Shown piece by piece: positions 25,081 to 37,492 of a stretch of DNA of 64,000 bases. How positions within the stretch are numbered: the stretch's first letter is position 1; every line of letters starts with the position of its first letter. Origin of the DNA: Armatimonadota bacterium (GTDB lineage Bacteria; Armatimonadota; Zipacnadia; JAUWAU01); NCBI GenBank assembly GCA_030601885.1, contig JAUWAU010000016.1, positions 66,817-130,816 of the forward strand, written 5' to 3'. The notes under the pieces are model-generated. The model did not search any database, was not told the DNA's origin, and saw nothing but the letters and a program-made list of their open reading frames with translations. The translations under genes and the position numbers were made by a program.

Positions 25081-25455
25081 TCGCTCTTCGCGGACTTCGC
25101 CGAGACCTTTCTCGACTACGCTGGGGTGCCCATCCCGAAGGCGATGCGAGGCCGAAGTTTCCGTCCGCTTCTACAGGGCAAGACGCCAGCGGATTGGCGC
25201 AAGTCGTCGTTCTATGCCTACTGGGGCCGCCGAACCAAGCACTACGGAGTCCGAACCGAGAGATATAAGCTGGTGATTTGCCATACCGGTGAGCGCGAAC
25301 TGTATGACCTGAAGACAGATCCACAAGAGCGCAGGAGCGAGATCGGTAACCCCGAGTATGCCGCCGTGGTGAAAGAGTTTGAGGCGGAGCTGAAGAAAGT
25401 GATGGAGGAGATAAGAATCTCACAGGATGTTCTGCCCGGAAACCGAGGAGGATAG
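25081..25455 (+). pseudogene. 3' remnant of a sulfatase gene
   Basis: Only the C-terminal sulfatase region is present (FAETFLDYAGVPIPKAMRGRSFRPLLQG ... HYGVRTERYKLV ... ELYDLKTDPQE). There is no N-terminal catalytic CxPxR part. Upstream codons of the track ORF look non-coding. Confidence 0.65.
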
Positions 25456-25465
25456 GACCAAGACC

Positions 25466-28400
25466 ATGACTCAAAAGGTGCTGATTCGGCGGGCAATCGC
25501 GTGGATGAGGACGCCGGCCACGATCTTGGCGTTGGCTGCGGCGTCTGCGACCATGTCGGCGGCGGACTGGCCGCAGTACCGGGCCGACGCCACCCGGAGT
25601 GGATACGCGCCGGAGACGCTGCCGAGCCAACTCTCCCTCAAGTGGGTTCGCCATGCGAGGCATGCGCCCGATCGGGCATGGGTGGGCCGGAGCCTGGCGC
25701 GGTCACGGATGAAGTTTGACTGGGCGCACAGCGTAGTTGTGGCCGATGGCATCGGTTATTTCGGCAGTTCGACAGATGACAAGCTGTACGCTATCGACGC
25801 CGCCACCGGTGAAGAGAAATGGAGTTTCTTCACCGGCGGGCCCATCCGCCTTGCCCCTGCCGTCTGGAAAGATCGTGTGTTCGTCGTCAGCGATGATGGG
25901 TTTCTGCACTGTCTGTCGGCACTGGATGGCACGGAGCTCTGGAAGGTGCGCGGCGGCCCCGATCCCGATCTGGTGATCGGCAACGGGCGCGTCGTGTCGC
26001 GTTGGGTGGCGCGTGGCGGTCCGGCCGTTCGGGACGGCGTGGTCTACTTCGGCGCGGGCATCTGGCCCACGGATGGGGTCGCCATCTACGCCGTTGATGC
26101 TGAGAGCGGCAAGGTTCTGTGGTGCAATGACAACGCCGGCGCCCTGGAGATCGACCAACCGCACATGGGCGCCTATTCCCGGGGAGGCGTCGCGGCGCAG
26201 GGATACCTGGCGGTTACGAGCGACAAGGTGTTCGTAATGACCGGTCGCTCCATCCCGGCGGCGTTTGACCGGAAGACCGGACGCTTTCTCTACTTCCACC
26301 TGAGTCGGTACGGAGGGAAGACGCCGTGGGGTGTGGGCGGTGGCGATGTGGTAGCGACCGATGATGTCTTCTTCACGGCGGGCTTCGCCTTCGATACCGC
26401 AACGGGCATGCGACATCATCAAGTTGGCAAACGTAACTGGTGGATCCCTTTCGTCAGGGACGGACACCAGTATCACGGCGAATTCCTGGTAGGTGTGCGG
26501 CAAGTTATCGCTGCTACGCCGGATGGGTTCGTCAGGTCGGAGGGCTCGACCGTATACGGCTCCGCCCTCTCCAGGAAGACCTATGCTGTCCGCCGGGAAT
26601 GGGAGACCTCTGTTCATACGCCCCGCCTGGCATCTGTCGGACCGGCGAACAAGGGATACATGGAGAGAATCGACGACGCTCCTCTGGTGGCGGATCAGTG
26701 GTCTGTCGAAACAGACGGTCCGATCCAGGAGCTCATTGTCGCCGGCGGAACCATCGCGCTGGGCTCGGCCAACCGGGTCTTTCTCGTGGACGCAGTATCG
26801 AGGAGAGTCACGTGGTCAACCGAACTCGACAGCGCCGTCTACACATTGGCCGCATCGGACGGCTGCCTGTACGCCAGCACCGGCAAAGGGACCATCTACT
26901 GCTTCGGTGCGCAGGATGTGAACGCGGCTCCGAGAGAGATCGAGCTGAGCTCGAGGGCCTCGCCGTATCCGGACAACAGCCTCGCGCGTAGGGCGGCCCA
27001 GGAGATCATTCGCCAGACGGGCATCACCAGCGGTTACTGTCTGGATCTGGGATGTGGCAATGGTGCGCTGGCCTATGAGCTGGCGAAGCGGACCGATCTT
27101 CACATCATTGGCATAGATGCCAATCCGGCTAACGTCAGGGAAGCGCGGCGCAAACTGGATGCCGCCGGGCTCTACGGGGTGAGCGTGGCCGTCCTGCAAC
27201 GGGCTCTCTCGACCACGTATCTTCCCGACTACTTTGCGAACCTCATCGTCTCCTCATCGGCACTTCTCACGGGCACCGGCGGCTTGCCCGAGGGAGAGAT
27301 CGCCCGCCTCCAGCGCCCTTACGGCGGCACAGTTTGCCTGGGGACGCCGGGGGCCATGACTGTCAACGTGCGCGGCGAACTCGAGGGCGCGGGCAGTTGG
27401 ACTCATCCGCTTGGCGATCCCGGCAACACCATGTGCTCGGGCGATGAGCTCGCCAGAGGCCCGCTGGGGGTCTTGTGGTACAGGGACGAGACCCTCGAGA
27501 CCATTGACCGCCACGGCAAGAACCCGGCGCCGCTGTTCTACAAAGGCGTGCTGCTGCGCGAAGGCATCAACGCCATTGACGGAATCGACGCCTACAACGG
27601 CCGCGTCATGTGGCGCGTTTCTTTGCCAGAGCTGTTGGGCGCCTACCTGGGCGGCTCGGGCGTCGGGGCGACCCAGGTCGCAAACACGTACTGCGTCGCC
27701 GATGACGTCGTCTACGCCCGACAGGGGAGCCACTGCCTACTACTGCACGTCTACACGGGAAAACGTCTGGACAGATTCGAAGCGCCCAAGCATCCGGACG
27801 GACGCAAACACGACTGGACGTATGTCGCTTGTGAGGACGGCATTCTGTACGGCGCGCTCGCCAACGACACGCACATCGTCAAGTCGCAGCACGGAAGCGG
27901 AAACGAGCGCACGCAGGTCCCCATGGACAGGCACTTCACGGAATCCTCCATGGTCTTTGCCATAGACGCGGATACGGGCGAGGTGAAGTGGACGTGGGTT
28001 CCTGAACAGTCGATCCGGAACAATTCCTTCGCCGTCGGGAATGGCTGCATCTTCTTCATCGATCGCCCCGTGGCCGAGATTGACCGAATCCTCCGTGAAG
28101 TCGCCGAGGCGAAGCGCCGCGGAGGGGAGCCCCTGCCGGCCCATCCGCTCGGCAGGTTGTTGGCTCTGGACGGGAACACGGGGGAGTTGCTGTGGGATAG
28201 GAAAGACAATGTTCACGGTACCACGCTCGTTCTGAGCGCCAAACATGACGCGCTCCTCATGTGCTACAACCACGTCGGTCGCGCTCTTGCCTCGGATGGC
28301 TTCAATCAAGGAACCACCTGCTTTCGGGCGTCGGATGGAACGATTCTGTGGGAAACGACGCAGAAGCTGGGCGGGCAGCGTCCCGTGGTCGTCGATCGGA

Positions 28401-29053
28401 CGATGTACAGCCCCCCGGGCGCGTGGGATCTGCTGACGGGAGAGCCGAAGACCGTAATGCGAAATGGTCAAGAGGTGCTCTGGCAAATCAAGGACCGGCG
28501 GATGGGTTGCGGCCCGTTGGCCGGCTCGCAACACCTGCTAATGGGGCGCGCGGGGGCCATGGGATACTACGACCTGGCGTATGATCCCGGGAGATACGAG
28601 TACTTCGGCGGCGCGCGGGCGGGATGTTGGATCAACATGATCGCGGCCGGCGGCATCGTTCTGGCGCCTGACGACAGCCGGGCCTGCCGCTGCGCCTATC
28701 AGAACCAGGCGTCCGTTGCCCTCAAAGAGTATGGGGAACGTCCGCCGAGGGTCACGGTGGCGAGCGAACCGGCGAACTACGCCTATGACATCGCCAGGAG
28801 GTCGTATAGCTTCGTTGGCAAGCTCATCATCGAGATGAGTCATCCCAAGGACGATGTCGAGATACGCTACACACTGGACGATAGCTATCCAACGATGGGA
28901 TCAGCTCTCTACACGGGGCCCATTACATTGACGGAGACAATGCCCGTGCGGGCCTCGGCGTTCAGGAACGGCAGGAAAGTGGCCGTTCGCGACGGCATCA
29001 TCTTCACCAAAGTCCGGAAGCTGGACACGACCACCGGGAAGAAGGGGCAATGA
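25466..29053 (+). CDS. Secreted PQQ-like beta-propeller protein with an internal class I SAM-methyltransferase domain and a C-terminal chitobiase/hexosaminidase-type (Fn3-associated) domain
   Basis: Signal peptide present, followed by propeller blades (ADWPQYRAD, KLYAIDAATGEEKWSF, LHCLSALDGTELWK, VLWCND). The SAM motif I is GYCLDLGCGNGALAYELAKRTDLHIIGID. A second propeller follows. The C-terminal block is IRYTLDDSYPTMGSALYTGPITL. The start could instead be the ATG at 25427. Confidence 0.75.
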   Translation: MTQKVLIRRAIAWMRTPATILALAAASATMSAADWPQYRADATRSGYAPETLPSQLSLKWVRHARHAPDRAWVGRSLARSRMKFDWAHSVVVADGIGYFGSSTDDKLYAIDAATGEEKWSFFTGGPIRLAPAVWKDRVFVVSDDGFLHCLSALDGTELWKVRGGPDPDLVIGNGRVVSRWVARGGPAVRDGVVYFGAGIWPTDGVAIYAVDAESGKVLWCNDNAGALEIDQPHMGAYSRGGVAAQGYLAVTSDKVFVMTGRSIPAAFDRKTGRFLYFHLSRYGGKTPWGVGGGDVVATDDVFFTAGFAFDTATGMRHHQVGKRNWWIPFVRDGHQYHGEFLVGVRQVIAATPDGFVRSEGSTVYGSALSRKTYAVRREWETSVHTPRLASVGPANKGYMERIDDAPLVADQWSVETDGPIQELIVAGGTIALGSANRVFLVDAVSRRVTWSTELDSAVYTLAASDGCLYASTGKGTIYCFGAQDVNAAPREIELSSRASPYPDNSLARRAAQEIIRQTGITSGYCLDLGCGNGALAYELAKRTDLHIIGIDANPANVREARRKLDAAGLYGVSVAVLQRALSTTYLPDYFANLIVSSSALLTGTGGLPEGEIARLQRPYGGTVCLGTPGAMTVNVRGELEGAGSWTHPLGDPGNTMCSGDELARGPLGVLWYRDETLETIDRHGKNPAPLFYKGVLLREGINAIDGIDAYNGRVMWRVSLPELLGAYLGGSGVGATQVANTYCVADDVVYARQGSHCLLLHVYTGKRLDRFEAPKHPDGRKHDWTYVACEDGILYGALANDTHIVKSQHGSGNERTQVPMDRHFTESSMVFAIDADTGEVKWTWVPEQSIRNNSFAVGNGCIFFIDRPVAEIDRILREVAEAKRRGGEPLPAHPLGRLLALDGNTGELLWDRKDNVHGTTLVLSAKHDALLMCYNHVGRALASDGFNQGTTCFRASDGTILWETTQKLGGQRPVVVDRTMYSPPGAWDLLTGEPKTVMRNGQEVLWQIKDRRMGCGPLAGSQHLLMGRAGAMGYYDLAYDPGRYEYFGGARAGCWINMIAAGGIVLAPDDSRACRCAYQNQASVALKEYGERPPRVTVASEPANYAYDIARRSYSFVGKLIIEMSHPKDDVEIRYTLDDSYPTMGSALYTGPITLTETMPVRASAFRNGRKVAVRDGIIFTKVRKLDTTTGKKGQ

Positions 29054-29283
29054 GCGGCCCTGAAGCGCCGACACGAAGGGATGTCCTGAGCAACACAGTC
29101 TCGGCGCCGCGATGATGAGAGACCTGCCCACGATATTGCAGTTACTGCGCCTCGACAGTGCGGGCGATGTCCGTGAGGACCTCGGGGATCGCCAGGACCA
29201 GCCTGCGTCCGTCTGAGTGGGCTTCTGTGGCCGACGTTCGATGAATATCTTGGCGGATGATCCGCGTAGAACAGCGGCTTGCC

Positions 29284-30615
29284 TTATCCGGCGGCCATTT
29301 TCGGCTGCAGGCGGCGCGCGGCTGCCCACAGTGCAATGGCAAGCCAAAGCCGCATCTGTGGGGCGTAACGGCGCCAGGAGCGGACGAAGCTCGATTCGAA
29401 CACCCACGTCCACGCCAACGCGGCAGGCAGCGCCAGAAGTGAAGGCAATCCGCCAAGTGCCACCCAAACCTGCCCCCCGCCCGGTGCTGCTACTGCGCTC
29501 CACCATTCCCGCAGCGCCTCCGGGTATTGCATAGCCAGGCACACTACCAGGCCAATGAGGGCCAACTGAGCGACCGCCTCCCCCGCCACCCAGAGCACCG
29601 CCCACCACAACCTCCCCCAGGCGCTCCAGCCCTGCGTGGCTCGATTCATGGTCTCGGGCGCCACCAGCGAGTCGATGCGGTCGAGCAGATCCTCCCACGC
29701 ATCCGCATCGTCGAGCCGCACCAGACCCAACGCATCGGTCAGCAGCCACCAGCCATCGGTCCTCGTCCCGACAAGCAGGCACCAGGCTGCAGTGAACTGC
29801 AGGAAAAGCGCCGCGGCCAGGGCGGCGGGCCAGGCGGTGCCCACATAGATGGCATACGAAACGACCGCAGCCACAAGCTGAAGGTACACGCCACCAGCGT
29901 CCACGATACACCGCCGCGCGCGCGGGAGCCTCCAGGCTTCAGTGACATCCGCACTCCAGGATGCCGGCAGGAGCCCGGTCACATCGCCATGAGTACCGGA
30001 GAATCTTCGGCACGCTGCGAGATGACCTAACTCGTGCAAGAAGACGAGCAACGGCGCCAGGAGGCTCAAGACCAGGACGTCGAGCCACGAAAGCTGGTGC
30101 AGCGCGCGGGCTACTTGGGGAAGCCCATCGAACACGACCATCCGGACTAGCATGGCCAGTACGGCGACCAGTACAGCAGCCGCCACCGGCCGTGCGAATA
30201 GGACGCCCAGCAACGGTGTAGCCACCCCGAGCTGGCCCGCCTTGACAGTGACCCGCCAGGCACCCGCCGTTTTCTCGACAAAACGCGGAGGCACTGGCTC
30301 CATGTCCGGTTCGGCGTCGTCGTCCTGGGCGCGGCGGCCGGCCAGGAGGCCTCGTGGCCCCAGCCTATTCTCCAGAGCCCACTCAACCTCCCACCGCGTG
30401 ACGTGGCGGCGCCAGAGGCGGGAGACGGCGCGCGCAATTCGCTCCTCAGACCGCATCCCATCGATGCAGGAGAGGAGTTGATAGAGGGACTCGGAGATGC
30501 GGAAGAACCTGGCGTCCGGTAGCCGGACCAGGTAGGCCGGCTGGGGCAGATCCACGTCGAAGGGGCCGATCCAAACGCCCTCGGCGAGGCGTGGCTTGGC
30601 GGCGCTCGCGGGCAT
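29284..30615 (-). CDS. PqqD/RRE-like domain fused to an M50-like multi-pass membrane zinc metalloprotease
   Basis: The N-terminal block is FFRISESLYQLLSCIDGMRSEERIARAV (PqqD-like). HELGH sits within a TM segment. TDGWWLLTDALG resembles the second M50-type motif (xDGxxxLxD). At least six hydrophobic segments are present. The ATG lies 3 nt after the stop of 30619..32718. Confidence 0.65.
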   Translation of the reverse strand: MPASAAKPRLAEGVWIGPFDVDLPQPAYLVRLPDARFFRISESLYQLLSCIDGMRSEERIARAVSRLWRRHVTRWEVEWALENRLGPRGLLAGRRAQDDDAEPDMEPVPPRFVEKTAGAWRVTVKAGQLGVATPLLGVLFARPVAAAVLVAVLAMLVRMVVFDGLPQVARALHQLSWLDVLVLSLLAPLLVFLHELGHLAACRRFSGTHGDVTGLLPASWSADVTEAWRLPRARRCIVDAGGVYLQLVAAVVSYAIYVGTAWPAALAAALFLQFTAAWCLLVGTRTDGWWLLTDALGLVRLDDADAWEDLLDRIDSLVAPETMNRATQGWSAWGRLWWAVLWVAGEAVAQLALIGLVVCLAMQYPEALREWWSAVAAPGGGQVWVALGGLPSLLALPAALAWTWVFESSFVRSWRRYAPQMRLWLAIALWAAARRLQPKMAAG

Positions 30616-30618
30616 GGC

Positions 30619-32718
30619 TCAACTCTCTTGGAGGGCCGTGAGCAGCGCCCGGAGGCAGAAGGCGGTGGTCACCGTTGCGCTCTTGAAGGTCAACACGTGT
30701 GCAGACGTCGTCGCCTGCCGCTCCAACCGGAGGCGCGATAGGTCCACTTTCACGAAGGGACTGGCGGGCCATGCGCCGCTGCTGCGCTGGCGGCCGAGGA
30801 GATATGACAGCCCCCGCCTCCCGGCCGTGTCGAGCTCCGGTTGGCCCTCTTGCAGATCACACGCCAGTACACCGAAGGCCGTCTCCAGAGGCGTGCTTTC
30901 CGGTTCTCCCCATCCGCCATCCTGGTGCTGCGCCTGCAGCACGTACTGCAGCCCGCGCGCCAGCGGCTCGCAGTCGGGCTCGACATCAGCCAGAAGCCGA
31001 CAGCACAGCCACGTGGGATAGGTTCGACCCCAATACCAGTGGCCAGACCAACTGCCGTCCGAGTGCTGGACGCTCGCCAGGTAGCTTACACCGGCTCGCA
31101 GAACCTCGCCGAAGGCCTGCTTATCGTACAAGCAAACCCCGAACAGCGCATTGGCAACGACGTCCAGATCCGGCTCTTCGCCCCATGCCTCGTACATTCG
31201 TGCCTTGGCCCGCAGGGCGTCCTCATCGTCGGGGTCGGCCAGCCACGTGTCCACGGCACCATTTGAGCGCACATTGTGCTCGGCCAGCAGGGCCACGACA
31301 TCGCCGCACAGCTCGGCCATTCGCTCCGGCGCCGCACTGGCCAAGGCAGACAGGACGGCGCCCAGCGTGTCGGCATCCGCCGGCAGTCCGCTCACGCCCG
31401 GGATGTACGTCCATCCTCGTTGCGGGCCTTCGAGGCGGCTGCGTGCCAGGTAATCAACCTCGGCCTGCAACACTTCGTCAGGCACCATCAGACCGACGCG
31501 TCGGCAGTGCGCGAGGGCCTCCAGGATAAGGGCTCTGGCGAACACGTCGCCCGTGCGAAGGTGTCCACCCTTCGCCAGGGGCTCCGGTTGGGGGAAAAAC
31601 ACGGGGTGCCGTGCCTCGACAAAGCCCCGCTGCTGCTCCTGGACCAGCAGCCTCAGAGCCGACTCAGTCGCCTCGCGCGCCCGCTCTGTCGTCACTTCAT
31701 CCGATGCCGGTCTGGGGAGGGGCTCTGCCTCAATCCGGGCTCGCTCTTTTGTTGTAGCGCGGAGCAGTTCAAGGTCCTGCTGCAGGTTGGCTGAGCGAGT
31801 TCGTGCGCGCTGGACGTACCCCAGCCAGCCTGGACAGCCCTGCTCAGCGGCCAATTCGTGCGCGTGGTCAAATGCTGCGATGGACTCGCCCAGCGCCTCC
31901 TCAGCCAGCCCCGAGAAGTACATGAATTTGCCCACCAGCTCGGCGTCTGGCTTCTCGTCGCCCATGATCTGGTTGGCTAGGCCGCTTTCGATGAGGGTCC
32001 GGGTCAGGATGTAGGAGTAGTTCCCCCGCTCATAGTCGAACTTCCAATCGCAAAGATCGTCGTGCAATTGCAGGCCCATGGCGTGGTGGTCTTGGGAGGC
32101 GGTCAGCGGCTCAATCTTGTCGGGCTCGTGACCGAGCAGCCCCAGCGCCGTGGGGACCAGCTTGGCACATGCCTGCTTCCCCGTAGCCGAGCGCCAAAGC
32201 TCCTCTCCCGTGTAGGGGATCACTTGGCCGTCGTGGCGGCTGCGCTCCGCGACCATGACACCGGCCTGCTCCAGCCAGAAGGCGTCAAAGCGGAGCCAGA
32301 AGTCCGAGCTGGCGTCGAACAACTCCTGAAACGCGCGCGAGGCTTGCTGCAGACGATAGTGGCAACTCAGATAGCTGGCCAGGATGAACGGCCGCGCGTG
32401 TCCAAGCTGTGCGTCCACCAACTTGTCAAGCAAGATGGCGTGCTCAGCGACGAGCTGCGCACCAACCGCCAGTGTGCGCGCGTCCTCTGCCGTAACCCGC
32501 GGGAAGCCAGACAGAAACAGATAGACGTAATCATGGAACGAGCAATAGGCGGCGATGCTGTCAACCCACGTCCCGTCCTTCTCAATCACGCCGTCCATCG
32601 CTTCCCACTCGATGTAGGGCGATTGCTTCAGTGACTCATAGAAGCTGCCCACCACCTGCGTCGCGAGCGCCCAGACTTGCTCCACCTCGTGTGCCATGTG
32701 AGAATCGGGCTCCTGCAT
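30619..32718 (-). CDS. Fusion protein: N-terminal polyprenyl-synthase-like (class I isoprenoid fold) domain plus C-terminal QW-repeat prenyltransferase/terpene-cyclase-like alpha/alpha barrel
   Basis: N-terminal half: GLQLHDDLCDWKFD sits at about residue 215-228, where a second Asp-rich motif is expected. ATGKQACAKL is KT-like. A degenerate first motif, AILLDKLVD, sits at about residue 95-102. C-terminal half: four QW-like repeats are present (YLARSRLEGPQRGW, YLASVQHSDGSW, YVLQAQHQDGGW, YLLGRQRSSGAW), plus LPADADTLG. The ATG at 32718 is preceded by GAGGAG; the track start at 32724 is a TTG. Confidence 0.6.
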   Translation of the reverse strand: MQEPDSHMAHEVEQVWALATQVVGSFYESLKQSPYIEWEAMDGVIEKDGTWVDSIAAYCSFHDYVYLFLSGFPRVTAEDARTLAVGAQLVAEHAILLDKLVDAQLGHARPFILASYLSCHYRLQQASRAFQELFDASSDFWLRFDAFWLEQAGVMVAERSRHDGQVIPYTGEELWRSATGKQACAKLVPTALGLLGHEPDKIEPLTASQDHHAMGLQLHDDLCDWKFDYERGNYSYILTRTLIESGLANQIMGDEKPDAELVGKFMYFSGLAEEALGESIAAFDHAHELAAEQGCPGWLGYVQRARTRSANLQQDLELLRATTKERARIEAEPLPRPASDEVTTERAREATESALRLLVQEQQRGFVEARHPVFFPQPEPLAKGGHLRTGDVFARALILEALAHCRRVGLMVPDEVLQAEVDYLARSRLEGPQRGWTYIPGVSGLPADADTLGAVLSALASAAPERMAELCGDVVALLAEHNVRSNGAVDTWLADPDDEDALRAKARMYEAWGEEPDLDVVANALFGVCLYDKQAFGEVLRAGVSYLASVQHSDGSWSGHWYWGRTYPTWLCCRLLADVEPDCEPLARGLQYVLQAQHQDGGWGEPESTPLETAFGVLACDLQEGQPELDTAGRRGLSYLLGRQRSSGAWPASPFVKVDLSRLRLERQATTSAHVLTFKSATVTTAFCLRALLTALQES

Positions 32719-33045
32719 GCACAAACTCCTCTCTCGCCAGAGGGCGGAATGCGGTTTCGTTCAGTCTAGGCGCACTGACAGCGCTGCTGGCTCAGGGGCG
32801 GCGCCCGCTTCCGGCCCCAGCTACTTTGTCCGCACCGCGCCGGCCCGCCATGCGCGAACGCTGTGCTCAAGGCGGCACCGACATCGTAGATGCCTGCCCA
32901 TTGTTGGCACAGGCCATTGGCCGGCCGCCTATAGGGTCTACGTTCGGCAATGAACGGGATCCCGCGTGCGCGCGTTGGGAGGAGCGAGGGCTGTGGGGTT
33001 TTGTATCAGGAAGGCTCCATCCGGCCCCCGACGATGTGCAACTCA

Positions 33046-33176
33046 GAGCCTATCCCAAAACCCCTCGACTTGTCATGCTGAGCCTGGCGAAGCATCTCGC
33101 AATAGCCTCCGGGACGAGATTCTTCGCGTTGCTCAGAATGACATTTCTTCGAGCGGCTGGTTTTAGGATAGGCTCT
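33046..33176. repeat. Nested palindromic intergenic element
   Basis: Outer arms are GAGCCTATCCCAAAACC and GGTTTTAGGATAGGCTC. Inner arms are TGTCATGCTGAGC and GCTCAGAATGACA. Each pair has one mismatch. It lies in the spacer between the precursor peptide gene and the fusion gene. Confidence 0.8.
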
Positions 33177-33512
33177 AAATCACGGGACAGCTCCAGCACT
33201 GCCTTCCCAGCCCTCGAGAGCGATTCCCTAACCATCCCGTGTCCGCTTGCCGCTGCTGCCAAGCCCGAAACGGCCGGCTCTCGCGGCCCCGGGTAGTCGC
33301 AATGACACCCTTTCGCGGCTGCCGCCGGCCGGGGCTTGGTCCACGTTGTGCACCAGCGAAACGTCGCCCTGCCCGTGAGCACGTGTGCCCGTGCGTGCAT
33401 GAGCCCGTTCCCCAGAGCGTCACACCGCCTCGCGTCCACGGATAGCACCCCACGGAGCCCTGACCCTCCGCCTGCCCTCGCTGTGGTGCAGAGGGTCCAA
33501 TTCCCACAGCGG

Positions 33513-33704
33513 CTACTCCGGCTCTGGCTTCGGCATTTCTTTCTTGCCCCAGTCGCCGCACGCTTTGAAATTGTCGCACACGCACCCCCAAGCCTCCCCA
33601 CGAACGTCCAGCTCCTCCATGGCCAGCCGTTCCTCAAGCTCGTCTATGGACACCGCAGCGAACAACTCGGTGTTCAATGACTCGATTTGCTTACCAGGGC
33701 TCAT
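33513..33704 (-). CDS. Candidate RiPP precursor peptide (63 aa)
   Basis: The sequence is MSPGKQIESLNTELFAAVSIDELEERLAMEELDVRGEAWGCVCDNFKACGDWGKKEMPKPEPE. The ATG at 33704 follows a GGAGGA RBS (33711..33716) by 6 nt. It lies 97 nt downstream of the rSAM stop. It is hidden in the C-terminus of the 172-aa track ORF, whose upstream part overlaps the rSAM gene out of frame. Confidence 0.6.
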   Translation of the reverse strand: MSPGKQIESLNTELFAAVSIDELEERLAMEELDVRGEAWGCVCDNFKACGDWGKKEMPKPEPE

Positions 33705-33801
33705 GCTGTGTCCTCCTTGTGGAACCGCCACCCCGCCTCCGTGGGCTGCTGGATGCGACCTTTTCCAGGGCCCACACGGAGCCGAACGGTTCTGCTGTTC
33801 C

Positions 33802-35208
33802 CTATGCTGCCGCCGTAGATGAAAGCTGTTGCGCCGACTTGTCACTGTTGCGATCCAGCCACTCGACGTACGCCAGCGGCGCCACTCGTTGGAAGAGCTC
33901 GGGAAAGTCAGCGCAGTGCGGCTCGTACAGGTCGCCGGTTTCCCAAAAGGCGCGCTGCGCGCAGCCGCCTCCGCAAAGCAGGGCGTAGGGACATTTCCGA
34001 CACTGTGGTATGTTCGCCACCGTCCGCGCACGCCATCGCTCGACCGCCTCGTCGTCCAGCTCTAGATCCGGCACATACCTGCCCAGTTTGCCCTCCGGCG
34101 TCCGCACCGCTTCCCAGCATGCATACACATCGCCGGATGGGTCGAACAGATACATGGCTCTATTGGCGCCGCAGAAGGACGGCTGCAGGCGCGGAAGGCC
34201 CGTCTGCCGCAGCAGGCCAAACACGGTTCTGCGTAAGCCGAAGTCTGTACGCAGACACGAGAGTTCGGGATGGCTGGCCTGCAATCGCTGAAGGCCCTGC
34301 ATCATCTCGACCGGAGAAAGAGTTTGCCGAGCAGTCGATGGGGCATACACCACGTGGCAGTACGGGTGGAAGTTTTCGTGTGCCGCCCATCCCTGCTCCC
34401 GATAGAAGCGGGCCAGCTCCGGTATCAGGCTCAGATTGCTGCGGTCCACGTTCGTCCGCAGGCTCACGTCCACGCCGGCTTGAAGCGCGAGGGCGATGTT
34501 GTCGCTGATAGCAGCGAAGGTGCCGCGGCCGTCAGGCCCAATGCGGCGCTGGTCGTGGATCGGCTGGGGCCCGTCCAGGGTGATTTGGATCTCCTCGATC
34601 TTGCCCGCCCCCAGCAAGTGGCGGTAGTGTGCCAACCCTACGCCATTAGTAGTGGCGTGCAAGGCATAGCCGGCCTCAGTGCTCCTCTGGACCATGTACT
34701 CCACTATCTCCAGATTCCGGGGCATCAGCGGCTCGCCGCCATACAGCGTGATTGGCGCCCGCTGCTGGTCCTCGGGCTGCAGCTTCTCGATGGCCCGGAA
34801 CGCAGCGTCCACCGTGGCCTCATCCATGTGCGTCTCGCCACGCTCGGCGTCACGCCCGTCACGCCCGGCCTGAATGCAGTAGGGGCAGCGCAACTGACAG
34901 TCGTAGGTCGGAATCAGGTGAAATGTGGTGTACCGCCGATCCCGCCGATGAATCGCATCGGCAATCCGGCACATCAAGTCCCGTTCCTCTTCGGGGGTCT
35001 TGTCCGTGAGATACCCCCGCTGACGAAGCTGCGCCGCCGTTTGGGGCAGAATGTCTTCCGGCGCATGGGCGCAGCCATCCGCTGCCTCTCGCAGGAACGC
35101 TGCCACCTCACTAGCGACAACATCCACCGCACCCGAATAGCCGTGCACCAGAAGAACGCGACCCGATCCGGGCAAATCCGCCATCATCGTGTAGTCGCTT
35201 GTCCGCAT
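33802..35208 (-). CDS. Radical SAM / SPASM-domain peptide-modifying enzyme with N-terminal RRE-like extension
   Basis: CQLRCPYC (CX3CX2C) sits about 104 aa from the favoured start, MRTSDYTMM. The full 7-Cys SPASM pattern is present: C-x12-G-x4-C (CGANRAMYLFDPSGDVYAC), CX2CX5CX3C (CRKCPYALLCGGGC), then PHC. The track ORF starts 108 nt further upstream. Confidence 0.85.
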   Translation of the reverse strand: MRTSDYTMMADLPGSGRVLLVHGYSGAVDVVASEVAAFLREAADGCAHAPEDILPQTAAQLRQRGYLTDKTPEEERDLMCRIADAIHRRDRRYTTFHLIPTYDCQLRCPYCIQAGRDGRDAERGETHMDEATVDAAFRAIEKLQPEDQQRAPITLYGGEPLMPRNLEIVEYMVQRSTEAGYALHATTNGVGLAHYRHLLGAGKIEEIQITLDGPQPIHDQRRIGPDGRGTFAAISDNIALALQAGVDVSLRTNVDRSNLSLIPELARFYREQGWAAHENFHPYCHVVYAPSTARQTLSPVEMMQGLQRLQASHPELSCLRTDFGLRRTVFGLLRQTGLPRLQPSFCGANRAMYLFDPSGDVYACWEAVRTPEGKLGRYVPDLELDDEAVERWRARTVANIPQCRKCPYALLCGGGCAQRAFWETGDLYEPHCADFPELFQRVAPLAYVEWLDRNSDKSAQQLSSTAAA

Positions 35209-35318
35209 GTGCACCACCGGGCGTTGACATCTCCCAACGGCCAAACGCCAAGCCGGGGCAGCTTTGTCTCTGCTGGCTCGTCCCACCGCGCCCAGCCCGT
35301 TGAGGTAACCAGGCACGT

Positions 35319-35870
35319 CTATGCGTCGATCCGGCCCATTAGAGCCTCGCTGAATTGAAACTGCTGTGTCTCGACTGCACGGTTGTCGAGCGCGGACAGG
35401 CTGGACCTCACACCCCTGGTCTGGCTCATGCTGCGGGACATGCTGGGGTCCTTGACAACCATTATGGCCGTGTACATGGGGGCTCCTTCCGTGCCCACCA
35501 CCAGCTTGTAGATGGCTGCGCGCTGGATGCCCGCCTGTTTGCCGTACTGCGCAAACGCCTGCTGCAAGTCCGCCTCAAGCTGGGCCTCCTGCCCCGCTTT
35601 TGGCTTCCAGTACTGAGCCATGATAACGGGGCTGGCACGAAGCTGTGCAATGGTAGGCGCGTTCGGCATCACCCGTTCGACGCCCGCAGCCCGTGTGGAC
35701 GGTGTCCGCGTCCGACCCAGCGGGCCCCGCCGCGTTCGCAGTTGTGCGGAGGCGCGCTTGGGAAGAATCAGCGCACCCAGACCGCCCAGCAGCGATCCGG
35801 CTAAGGCGCCCAGTCGTATGAGCGCCCGGCGTCGGGCACTGCCTGCCTTCGTCTTACGGTCCTCTGGCAT
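35319..35870 (-). CDS. Hypothetical exported small alpha+beta protein (ABM/Dabb-like?)
   Basis: The N-terminus is TAT-like (SARRRALIRLGALAGSLLGG). The C-terminal ~100 aa (VIMAQYWKPKAGQEAQLEADLQQAFAQYGKQAGIQRAAIYKLVVG...AIMVVKDP) resembles a ferredoxin-like monooxygenase/stress-barrel fold. It lies directly upstream of the rSAM gene on the same strand. Confidence 0.45.
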   Translation of the reverse strand: MPEDRKTKAGSARRRALIRLGALAGSLLGGLGALILPKRASAQLRTRRGPLGRTRTPSTRAAGVERVMPNAPTIAQLRASPVIMAQYWKPKAGQEAQLEADLQQAFAQYGKQAGIQRAAIYKLVVGTEGAPMYTAIMVVKDPSMSRSMSQTRGVRSSLSALDNRAVETQQFQFSEALMGRIDA

Positions 35871-36397
35871 CTCTCAATCCTCCTTGTGCTGGACTCGCTA
35901 GCACGACTGCATTTCAGACTAATTCGGCTTTCTTCTCGGCCGAGTCGTCACCTCCTCCGTTTAGGGCCATATGCACACCCTTGCCGGACTCGCCGACCGC
36001 CGCACAGCGGCGCTGTATGCCATGGGCATGGCTGTTAGGGTGAATTGTGAGCAGTCTAACAAAGGGGGTATTGTATGTCAACCGCCGCCGGTTAGCGCGG
36101 TGGGAACGGCAGTTGACCGGCGACGACGGGCAGCGATGGCGTTAGTCTCCCACCGGAGCTTTGTCCGACTTTTCCCGCCCACGCCAGGATCCAGTTCCGG
36201 CACGCCCATCTCAGTGGAATGCGTGCGTTTCGTCGCGTCACGGTCGTCCTCGCCTCTTCGAGGGGCAGGGCGCGGAGTACAACCTGATGCTGACCTTCGG
36301 CCCGGCAGTCTCGCTGGTGCACTGAGGCAGCTTGCTCGGGCAAAGGACAATCAGCGGCGCTCGCGGAACGACGCCCGGGGGAGGTGCGGCGCACACC

Positions 36398-37492
36398 ATG
36401 GACAAGCAATCGAAGCCACTCGCCTATGTGGAGGCCGGAGTGGACCAGGCGCGCGAGGCACGTGCCCTCGCCGGGCTCGTCGGCTGGCTGGCGAAGGCGA
36501 ACGAGCTCCGCGACGGGATCGGAACGTCGGTATTGCCCTCCGGCCACTACGCCACGGTGGTGGACATCGGGCACAACACCGGCCTGGCGCTCTGCACCGA
36601 CGGCGTCGGCACGAAGGTGCTCGTGGCGCAGCTCATGGGCAAGTACGACACCGTGGGCATCGACTGCATCGCGATGAACGTCAACGACCTGATCTGTGTG
36701 GGGGCCGAGCCCATCGCCATGGTGGACTACCTCGCCGTCGAGGAGGCCGACGAGGAGCTGCTCGAGGGAATCGGCAAGGGTCTGTACGAGGGGGCGAAGC
36801 AGGCCAACATCACCATCCCGGGCGGCGAGGTCGCGCAGCTCCGGGAGATCGTCAAGGGCGCGGTCCAAGGCAAGGGCTTCGACCTGGCCGGCGCCGCCTT
36901 CGGCCTCGTGCCGCTCGATGGCATGATAACGGGCGAAGACATCAAGCCGGGCGATGCGATAGTTGGGCTGGCCAGCAGCGGCATTCACAGCAATGGCTTG
37001 ACGCTGGCGCGGAAGGCGCTCCTGGAGCAACTGGGGCTTCGCGTTGACAGCCACGTGGCGGAGCTTGGGCGCACCGTGGGCGAGGAGCTGCTCGAGCCGA
37101 CGAGGATCTACGTCCGGCCGGCGCTGGAGATGCTGCGCTCAGACGCTGACGTCAAGGGCCTCGCGAACATCACCAGCGACGGCCTCACGAACCTGGCTCG
37201 ACTCTCGCGCGAGGTGGATTACGTCATTGAGGAGCATCCGGAGCCCCCGCCGATATTCCCGCTGATCCAACGCGCCGCCGGCGTGACGGACGAGGAGATG
37301 TACACGGTCTTCAACATGGGCGTCGGCTTCTGCGTGGTGTGCGCCGAAGGGGATGCGGACGCGGTCATCGAGATCGCTCAAGCGCACGAGATAGACGCGT
37401 GGAAGCTCGGCAGTGTGGAACAGGGAAGCGGACGGGTGATGCTTCGGACGCGGGGACTGGTCGGTGAGGGCGGGGAGTTCCGGCGGGTGTAG
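36398..37492 (+). CDS. purM: PurM-type AIR synthase (phosphoribosylformylglycinamidine cyclo-ligase) family protein
   Basis: Family blocks are YVEAGVDQ, LCTDGVGTKVLVAQ, GIDCIAMNVNDLICVGAEPIAMVDYLA, IPGGEVAQL, GLASSGIHSNGLTLARK and FNMGVGFCVV. The start is the ATG at 36398 (MDKQSKPLAY). Confidence 0.7.
   Translation: MDKQSKPLAYVEAGVDQAREARALAGLVGWLAKANELRDGIGTSVLPSGHYATVVDIGHNTGLALCTDGVGTKVLVAQLMGKYDTVGIDCIAMNVNDLICVGAEPIAMVDYLAVEEADEELLEGIGKGLYEGAKQANITIPGGEVAQLREIVKGAVQGKGFDLAGAAFGLVPLDGMITGEDIKPGDAIVGLASSGIHSNGLTLARKALLEQLGLRVDSHVAELGRTVGEELLEPTRIYVRPALEMLRSDADVKGLANITSDGLTNLARLSREVDYVIEEHPEPPPIFPLIQRAAGVTDEEMYTVFNMGVGFCVVCAEGDADAVIEIAQAHEIDAWKLGSVEQGSGRVMLRTRGLVGEGGEFRRV

Follow-up and report, generated by a model that had tools for sequence, protein, structure and literature searches.

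What is the role of a protein that joins, in one polypeptide, the fold of an isoprenoid synthase to a barrel like that of terpene cyclases? The question is raised by a gene for 699 amino acids (aa) in a 64,000-nucleotide stretch of DNA (hereafter the window) from an Armatimonadota bacterium (NCBI GenBank assembly GCA_030601885.1, contig JAUWAU010000016.1, positions 66,817 to 130,816 of the forward strand). An initial annotation of the sequence had recognised the fusion and offered two explanations, a self-sufficient enzyme that makes a prenyl donor and transfers it to a peptide, or a compact bifunctional terpene synthase. Our analysis leads elsewhere. With good confidence, we regard the protein as a prenyltransferase-cyclase (PC) of the ChrPC type, a bifunctional maturase of peptides that are ribosomally synthesized and then post-translationally modified (RiPPs), its likeness to ChrPC being one of described architecture. 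Most likely, the enzyme would attach an isoprenoid lipid to a Trp of a neighbouring ribosomal peptide and then fold the lipid into rings. The protein is filed with ChrPC because every architectural feature of the type that was tested is present: an N-terminal domain like a trans-isoprenyl diphosphate synthase (hereafter trans-IDS), a conserved Gln upstream of the second Asp-rich motif, an MstE-like C-terminal domain with a DxD(D) motif, and a RiPP precursor that offers a Trp.

Fold of the N-terminal half

The open reading frame (ORF; Table 1) is intact and begins with ATG behind a GAGGAG ribosome-binding site; a TTG two codons upstream is an alternative start that would give 701 aa. An independent gene caller reported the same 699-aa product on a metagenome contig that is ~99% identical (L001). 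AlphaFold2 (AF2), given 62 homologues as input, modelled the full-length protein with a predicted local distance difference test (pLDDT) of 94.2 and a predicted template-modelling score (pTM) of 0.91. Conservation was counted in an alignment of 61 fusion homologues, to which all fractions of 61 refer. Profiles, AF2 models and Foldseek comparisons bore out both fold assignments of the initial annotation, and the motif strings that it quoted (DKLVD, GKQACAK, QLHDDLCDWKFD and DADT) were each found at the expected place. The structure prediction and fold search that it had proposed for each half led to trans-polyprenyl synthases for the N-terminal half and to monodomain class II cyclases for the C-terminal half.

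When the N-terminal half, the prenyltransferase (P) domain, was modelled separately (pLDDT 94.3) and searched alone with Foldseek, trans-polyprenyl synthases made up the entire top 50 (template-modelling score, TM, 0.6-0.76). A profile built from 47 N-domains matched solved trans-polyprenyl synthases in the PDB (4lob, E 5e-9; 3oyr, E 1e-7), in a register that sets LLDKviDe on LVHDDVVDE, GKaaLaK on GKTSrLFEL and AlQLyDDLkDW on AFQIIDDILDY. The two Asp-rich motifs lie 122 aa apart in the window protein and ~123 aa apart in 4lob, in keeping with the synthase-like spacing noted earlier. Six residues are invariant in all 61 fusions (D102, W141, D220, D221, D224 and D228), and D98 (59/61), K181 (58/61), Q217 (56/61), W225 (59/61) and also E158 are nearly so; K186 is kept in 48. 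The KT-like block and the second Asp-rich motif (aa 217-228) were thus read correctly, and the Mg-binding Asp positions that were to be checked are retained at D98, at D102 and throughout the second motif. The first motif was also located correctly, but its description as degenerate needs revision: position 99 is K in 21 fusions, R in 17, E in 8 and D in 2, so that a basic residue in 38 of 61 is the family norm and not a sign of decay.

The P domain of the window protein has no Pfam match, PF00348 included, even at E<=10. Nine of the 61 homologues touch PF00348 below threshold (best family member, E 3.6e-5), and homologue P0016 scores 19.6 bits against a cut-off of 27. Neither the canonical DDxxD first motif nor the gathering-threshold match to PF00348 that mark chain-elongating synthases was found in the window protein. 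Judged from these sequence features, the domain, which has a divergent trans-IDS fold, has probably lost the capacity to elongate chains.

Two other placements of the P domain were considered and set aside. With the window N-half as a single query, the PDB search gave 3oyr as its sole match (E 0.32), insignificant and in the wrong register. That register, which hhalign against one synthase likewise produced, sets LQLHDDLCD on the first synthase motif; it was rejected as an effect of the two-fold repeat inside that fold, and the second-motif register was accepted because the family profile and global structural alignments both place the segment there. The idea of a class I terpene cyclase, with DDxxD and an NSE/DTE-like DDLxDxxxD, was dropped, the structural and profile neighbours being chain-length synthases and not cyclases.

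Could the N-terminal half nevertheless supply its own donor? It would then make the donor from isopentenyl diphosphate (IPP) and dimethylallyl diphosphate, and the toroid, working like a protein prenyltransferase or LanC, would pass it to the peptide, for example to a Cys. The homology to trans-polyprenyl synthases fits this explanation, as do the retained metal-binding Asp residues of the first motif, the complete second motif and the lack of a separate synthase gene in the window. The basic residue at the second position of the first motif, where only 2 of 61 fusions have D, and the missing PF00348 match argue against it. So do the separate canonical polyprenyl synthases encoded in three of eight loci, namely L005, L009 and L012, in the last of which the gene is directly adjacent to the fusion (the eight are the window and seven related loci, L003, L005, L009, L010, L012, L013 and L014, with PC homologues 21-36% identical to the window fusion). 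The self-made donor of the initial annotation does not survive the first-motif counts and these synthase genes, and the toroid and the precursors, described below, make the explanation as a whole very improbable.

Peptide prenylation offers another use for the same residues. According to the part of a recent review that treats trans-IDS-like peptide prenyltransferases (PMC13290415), the second Asp-rich motif and the Gln before it are repurposed in these enzymes for Trp recognition, and Trp is the target of all those characterised. The window protein has this Gln as Q217, which discriminates weakly, since canonical synthases share it (FQxxDD).

A single-toroid cyclase domain

The C-terminal half, the cyclase (C) domain, scored above the Pfam threshold for SQHop_cyclase_C (PF13243, E 1e-14 to 2.4e-15). 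Foldseek searches with the AF2 model gave the monodomain cyclases 8pak and 8paj (TM 0.79-0.81) and MstE (TM 0.72-0.75) as top matches, with the double-domain drimenyl diphosphate synthase and squalene-hopene cyclase ranked behind them; D109 mutant structures of MstE are among those listed. In phmmer, 8pak aligned across aa 446-695 (E 3.4e-13), pairing PADADT with PADADS. Squalene-hopene and oxidosqualene cyclases have a beta-gamma double toroid of ~630 aa; the C-half has one toroid of ~355 aa and missed the curated cyclase cut-offs (TIGR01787, 62.8 bits against 322.7; TIGR01507, 45.7 against 431). Four QW repeats had been proposed. Three are clear (aa 542-557, 586-603 and 635-650), and the remainder amounts to one or two degenerate copies at about aa 353-366 and 420-436, not to a fourth clean one. 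Aromatic residues W436, W557, W561, W603 and W650 are invariant or nearly so in the fusions.

The DADT motif does occupy the DxDD position, at aa 448-451, as first proposed. D448 is conserved in 57 and D450 in 54 of the 61 fusions; at the fourth position, 22 fusions have D, 17 have S and 16 have T. MstE is reported to protonate its substrate with DxD, not DxDD (PMC12414744). Because S and T are frequent at position 451, 8pak has DADS and MstE uses DxD, we take DADT to be a normal active-site variant, ordinary for the family. The missing last Asp of the canonical DxDD would also suit a toroid without catalytic activity that binds peptide or lipid beside a P domain that only prenylates the peptide, the more so as cyclisation in the radical-SAM (S-adenosylmethionine)-associated subfamily is a proposed step. 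That explanation is unlikely, however: 33 of the 61 fusions have Ser or Thr at 451, with D448 and D450 conserved, the crystallised 8pak has DADS, MstE works with DxD, and the QW repeats and aromatic residues have been maintained.

The toroid also bears on the self-sufficient enzyme, in which it would transfer the donor. No Zn site like that of LanC or of protein prenyltransferases, for which the initial annotation had suggested a check, was found: no Cys or His column reaches 60% in the 61 homologues, the best being H371 (51%) and C572 (56%). PF00432 matched the window protein only at E 0.21 and LANC_like gave no match. A LanC-like or Zn-prenyltransferase role was therefore rejected for want of conserved Cys/His ligands, and the closest structures are those of proton-initiated cyclases, with the DxD acid motif conserved in the fusions.

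Peptide genes at the locus and its relatives

A ChrPC-type enzyme should be encoded with a RiPP precursor. A 63-aa ORF 794 nucleotides (nt) upstream of the PC gene, preceded at 8 nt by a strong AAGGAGG ribosome-binding site, encodes MSPGKQIESLNTELFAAVSIDELEERLAMEELDVRGEAW39-GCVCDNFKACGDWGKKEMPKPEPE. Four near-identical variants of this precursor differ only within the last nine residues. When the 11 precursors of the eight loci were aligned, just two columns, R26 and W39, were invariant. The leaders share ..S(I/L)xELEERLxxE(E)LDER.., with the Trp ~12 residues past ERL, and Cys residues come after the Trp in six loci, in the pattern WxCxC(D/N)x(F)xC, the window version being W39-G-C-V-C-D-N-F-K-A-C. 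Two loci have Cys-free cores that keep the Trp (L009, ..AAWGVTTS; L005, ..SGWHVSVSV..), and both are without an adjacent SPASM enzyme; across the loci, SPASM radical-SAM genes co-occur with Cys-rich cores. The Cys-rich core of the window peptide would fit the transfer to Cys that the self-sufficient enzyme might perform, but the Cys-free precursors still retain the Trp.

The related loci include those of Clostridium thermarum, a Melioribacteraceae metagenome-assembled genome (MAG) and Terracidiphilus. A small ORF of 45-82 aa is present in the cluster in all eight loci, mostly directly upstream of the fusion; L012 has four tandem small ORFs on the downstream side, and in L014 small ORF and fusion are separated by the radical-SAM gene. 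SPASM-type radical-SAM genes occur in six of the eight, and an HExxH protease gene directly downstream of the PC gene also in six (the window, L003, L009, L010, L013 and L014), the window and L009 proteases being 32% identical. L003 further encodes a geranylgeranyl-reductase-like flavoenzyme. The four tandem precursor genes of L012 (13823-14732, Clostridium thermarum GCA_010367625.1) encode peptides of 48-53 aa with ..FEERLxxELEER..W-xCxCDGFxC; their neighbours are the PC gene, the polyprenyl synthase gene, ATP-binding cassette transporters and several radical-SAM genes. Since Clostridium thermarum is in culture, it could serve for studies of the pathway.

These comparisons bear on the second explanation first offered, a bifunctional synthase of a free, small-molecule terpenoid, as in PvCPS, that happens to lie beside an unrelated RiPP cluster. 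Both domains do come from terpene-enzyme superfamilies, stand-alone P domains of 300-340 aa exist in the family, and fungi are known to have terpene synthases that fuse a prenyltransferase to a cyclase, in the accounts available of them. The order precursor-PC-HExxH, on the other hand, is kept across phyla despite PC divergence (21-34% identity), and the Trp is invariant in 11 of 11 precursors. In addition, some ~1000-aa relatives (P0015, P0021) are P-C-protease triple fusions with a C-terminal GldB_lipo/DUF2268 domain, a predicted Zn protease, which is sensible for a peptide substrate only, and the relative ChrPC acts on a peptide, as the review outlines (PMC13290415). A terpene synthase unrelated to peptides accordingly has very little probability. 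The peptide acceptor of the first proposal, by contrast, gained support from flanking-gene evidence that had not been cited for it: the precursor ORF, a radical-SAM/SPASM maturase gene and an HExxH protease gene flank the fusion, in a layout that recurs in other phyla.

Neighbouring genes

The genes make up a minus-strand operon in which a promoter-like site is followed, in this order, by the genes for a 183-aa protein, the radical-SAM/SPASM maturase, the precursor, the PC enzyme and the HExxH protease; coordinates of the locus are collected in Table 1. The start of the radical-SAM maturase is likely M37 (35208) or M44-M45 (35187/35184), the longest ORF running from a GTG at 35316; over its full length, the window enzyme shares 42% identity with its L003 orthologue, in an alignment that begins at M37. 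The CxxxCxxC motif reads CQLRCPYC (aa 140, 34876-34899). Membership in the radical-SAM/SPASM class is supported by PF04055 (52.9 bits against 29.5) and the SPASM model TIGR04085 (55.9 bits against 27), and TIGR04463 (3.5e-36) and the PapB family (1.7e-29) matched as well. No equivalog cut-off was reached, and for that reason no cross-link type was assigned to the enzyme.

Table 1. Positions of genes, domains and motifs at the locus, numbered from the first nucleotide of the window
Feature	Position	Strand	Basis
HExxH polytopic membrane metalloprotease gene (HELGH at 30022-30036)	29284..30615	-	NF041824, 3.9e-16; downstream homologues
PC maturase gene, P domain fused to C domain, 699 aa	30619..32718	-	ORF and L001 gene call; AF2 model; 61 aligned fusions
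C domain, aa 344-699, single alpha/alpha toroid, MstE-type monodomain class II cyclase	30622..31689	-	PF13243, Foldseek, phmmer
Predicted general-acid motif D448-A-D450-T451, DxD variant of DxDD	31366..31377	-	Conservation; aligned to 8pak DADS
P domain, aa 1-~335, divergent trans-IDS fold	31714..32718	-	Family profile against PDB; Foldseek
Second Asp-rich motif analogue, Q217-LH-DDLCDWKFD228	32035..32070	-	Aligned to FQIIDDILDY
GKT-block equivalent, G180-K-Q-A-C-A-K186	32161..32181	-	Conservation; aligned to 4lob GKTSrLFEL
First Asp-rich motif analogue, D98-K-L-V-D102	32413..32427	-	Conservation; aligned to 4lob LVHDDVVDE
Precursor peptide gene, 63 aa	33513..33704	-	Called independently on L001; homologues in 7 loci
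Trp39 codon, predicted prenylation site at leader/core junction	33588..33590	-	Invariant Trp column
Radical-SAM/SPASM peptide maturase gene	33802..35208	-	TIGR04463, PapB family, SPASM
Putative accessory protein gene, 183 aa, Arg-rich N-terminal signal-like segment	35319..35870	-	Conserved in L003
Sigma-70-like promoter candidate, TTGACA-17-TAGACT with extended TG	36053..36081	-	Consensus scan

The HExxH protease gene begins 4 nt past the PC stop codon. Its product matched the NF041824 model (daptide_HExxH) below the cut-off of that model and is the probable leader peptidase. Upstream of the maturase gene, the 183-aa protein resembles a 168-aa ORF (BLASTP E 6e-12) that in L003 has the radical-SAM gene on one side and the precursor on the other, and similar ORFs occur in L014 (145 aa, by eye) and L010. 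It matched no Pfam or NCBIfam model and is taken as a conserved accessory component of this type of RiPP cluster. The consensus scan found 2 promoter sites where 0.6 were expected, which lends weak support to the candidate at 36053-36081.

Between the precursor and the PC gene (32719-33512) we found no convincing ORF, promoter or terminator, and an Rfam search of 28500-36500 returned no match. The 794-nt gap comprises 661 nt without an insertion of 133 nt at 33045-33177, whose terminal inverted repeats are 18 nt long (AGAGCCTATCCCAAAACC / GGTTTTAGGATAGGCTCT) and which contains a hairpin, cattctgagcaacgcgaagaatc... Its absence from the otherwise ~99% identical contig L001 gives it the look of a miniature mobile element that was inserted recently; the window contains no second copy.

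On the other strand, 25427-29053 encodes a 1208-aa protein in which beta-propeller repeats like those that bind pyrroloquinoline quinone (PQQ-like) are joined to a SAM methyltransferase domain and to CHB_HEX_C/Fn3-associated domains, as read from the Pfam matches of an identical gene on L008. This gene and the operon are convergent and probably unrelated.

Distribution of the family

A HMMER search with aa 1-343 against 1.84 billion cluster representatives returned 597 at E<=1e-3 and 258 at E<=1e-10. Lengths in the best 150 of the 597 peak at 650-720 aa (fusions), 300-340 aa (stand-alone P domains) and 880-1020 aa, and the signature DD[LVI]xDW[KR]xD was present throughout the N-domain family members inspected. 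The survey of domain architectures that had been suggested, for PF00348 joined to cyclase families, thus found the fusion itself to be widespread, with 597 N-domain clusters of which many are ~700 aa, although PF00348 is unmatched in the window protein. Synthase-fold PC enzymes form hundreds of clusters and occur in Firmicutes, Ignavibacteriota, Acidobacteriota and uncultured lineages. A word-index search with the N-half missed even the 99%-identical P0001, so its negatives for the N-domain family are unreliable. The single PC protein, searched against genome representatives (GTDB), brought up nothing but an ordinary cyclase from a Verrucomicrobiota MAG.

In a group of 880-945 aa (P0029, P0037, P0041, P0048 and others), the P domain has a canonical DDxxD first motif. 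In these proteins the domain comes after an N-terminal extension and before a long C-terminal region, and no Pfam match was found in any of them.

No curated Pfam or NCBIfam model exists for the P-domain family, and PC homologues are currently labelled "hypothetical" or "squalene-hopene cyclase". The automatic name given by the Joint Genome Institute (JGI), "squalene-hopene/tetraprenyl-beta-curcumene cyclase", is misleading, given a single toroid and TIGR scores below cut-off. The DD[LVI]xDW[KR]xD signature would allow proteins under these labels to be re-annotated.

A possible pathway

From the locus and its relatives we propose the following steps, in no fixed order of prenylation, cyclisation, cross-linking and proteolysis. 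The 63-aa precursor would be made with a leader bearing ..SIDELEERL..EELD.. The P domain would bind a pre-made allylic diphosphate, probably C15-C20, from the cellular isoprenoid pool; Mg2+ held by D98 and D102 would ionise this donor, and Trp39 of the precursor would attack the allylic cation, its indole positioned by the Q217/D220-D228 block that binds IPP in true synthases. In the C domain, D450 of DADT would be the acid that protonates the prenyl chain on the peptide at its terminal double bond, and the chain would be cyclised into a polycyclic terpene. The CxCD..C core beside Trp39 may be cross-linked by the radical-SAM/SPASM enzyme, the bridges probably being thioethers as in ranthipeptides or sactipeptides, and the HExxH membrane protease would cut off the leader.

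Several observations weigh against reading the locus as a ChrPC-type system. The separation of precursor and PC genes, 794 nt including the 133-nt mobile insertion, is unusually long; in related loci where the two genes are adjacent, the gap ranges from an overlap up to 390 nt. No isoprenoid-donor gene was found in the 64-kb window by tblastn with two cluster-encoded synthases, so the donor must originate outside the window. The acid motif ends in Thr and not in Asp, so that the cyclase could be slower or start differently. The Cys residues of the core, or a second Trp (W52), could be the acceptor in place of Trp39. Kinship to ChrPC draws on its published architecture, with which the window protein was compared by description only. 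Finally, for the PC protein and its radical-SAM-associated subfamily the evidence is architectural, and all chemical steps are inferred from it.

With those points in view, we propose tentatively, and with somewhat less than even confidence, that the cluster represents a RiPP subclass present in several phyla, in which a cyclised C15-C20 terpene, placed by a PC maturase of the D[K/R]xxD type on the invariant Trp of the leader/core junction, is combined with a WxCxC(D/N)x(F)xC core bridged by a dedicated radical-SAM/SPASM enzyme and with processing by an intramembrane HExxH protease. Were this true, the product would be a terpenoid/thioether hybrid peptide without a described counterpart. The locus and its relatives regularly pair a synthase-fold PC with radical-SAM cross-linking chemistry and a membrane protease. 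This steady pairing, which brings together a radical-SAM/SPASM enzyme, a core of the form WxCxCD..C and an intramembrane HExxH protease, may be new, as may the breadth of the PC family and its lack of a curated Pfam/NCBIfam model; the radical-SAM/Cys-rich PC subfamily appears to be uncharacterised. The window offers a compact five-gene cassette, which could yield a new lipopeptide scaffold, and a clear prediction of the acceptor site, Trp39. To our knowledge, peptides with cyclised terpene groups were unknown before 2024.

Relation to characterised enzymes

The two folds had been taken to occur normally as separate proteins, and the fusion was rated as highly novel on that ground. This ground has gone, as the fused enzymes ChrPC and NctPC were published in 2024. 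Several other enzymes share part of the architecture. Fungal fusions of the PvCPS type, in the descriptions available, likewise join an isoprenoid-synthase-fold domain to a class II cyclase in one polypeptide, but they combine a true geranylgeranyl diphosphate synthase with a beta-gamma didomain cyclase and release a free diterpene diphosphate, with no peptide involved. Trans-polyprenyl synthases (PF00348; 4lob, 3oyr, 3wjk, 4jyx) resemble the P domain in fold, motif order and spacing; the P domain differs in having D[K/R]xxD in place of DDxxD, a deletion of ~11 residues after the second motif and no Pfam-level match, and separate true synthases are encoded beside some PC homologues.

ComQ, PalQ and Ord1, all-helical Trp prenyltransferases with a trans-IDS origin, belong to the superfamily of the P domain and share with it the repurposing proposed for the second Asp-rich motif, to bind indole; the acceptor of ComQ and PalQ is a peptide Trp, as proposed for the window system. 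Unlike the window protein, all three are stand-alone and without a cyclase domain, and DD[LVI]xDW[KR]xD is specific to the window P-domain family; no significant sequence match to any of the three turned up in the searches made. The C-half is most like MstE (PDB 6sbb) and the myxobacterial 8pak and 8paj, which share its single toroid (TM 0.72-0.81), DxD-type acid motif and QW repeats. These cyclases are, in contrast, stand-alone proteins of ~350 aa, and the substrate of MstE is a small-molecule meroterpenoid and not a peptide-bound prenyl group.

The closest parallels are the PC maturases themselves (Hubrich et al., Chem 2024, as presented in the review PMC13290415), of which the passages of that review treating them describe two, ChrPC and NctPC, as characterised enzymes that install such groups. 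NctPC, from a cyanobacterial RiPP pathway, geranylgeranylates a peptide Trp and then cyclises the chain with an MstE-like C domain, the same sequence of prenylation and cyclisation as proposed here, but its P domain has the ABBA fold (PMC13290415). ChrPC combines a trans-IDS-like P domain with an MstE-like C domain and prenylates an internal peptide Trp with C10-C20 donors before the chain is cyclised (PMC13290415). As far as that description goes, it matches the window protein in the order of a trans-IDS-like P and a monodomain MstE-like C domain, in having a RiPP precursor, in the Trp acceptor and in the Gln before the second motif; what the window locus has beyond this, compared by description, is a radical-SAM/SPASM maturase, a core of the form WxCxCD..C and a membrane protease with HExxH. 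The window protein is a further, uncharacterised example of an enzyme type known since 2024 and introduces no new enzymatic principle.

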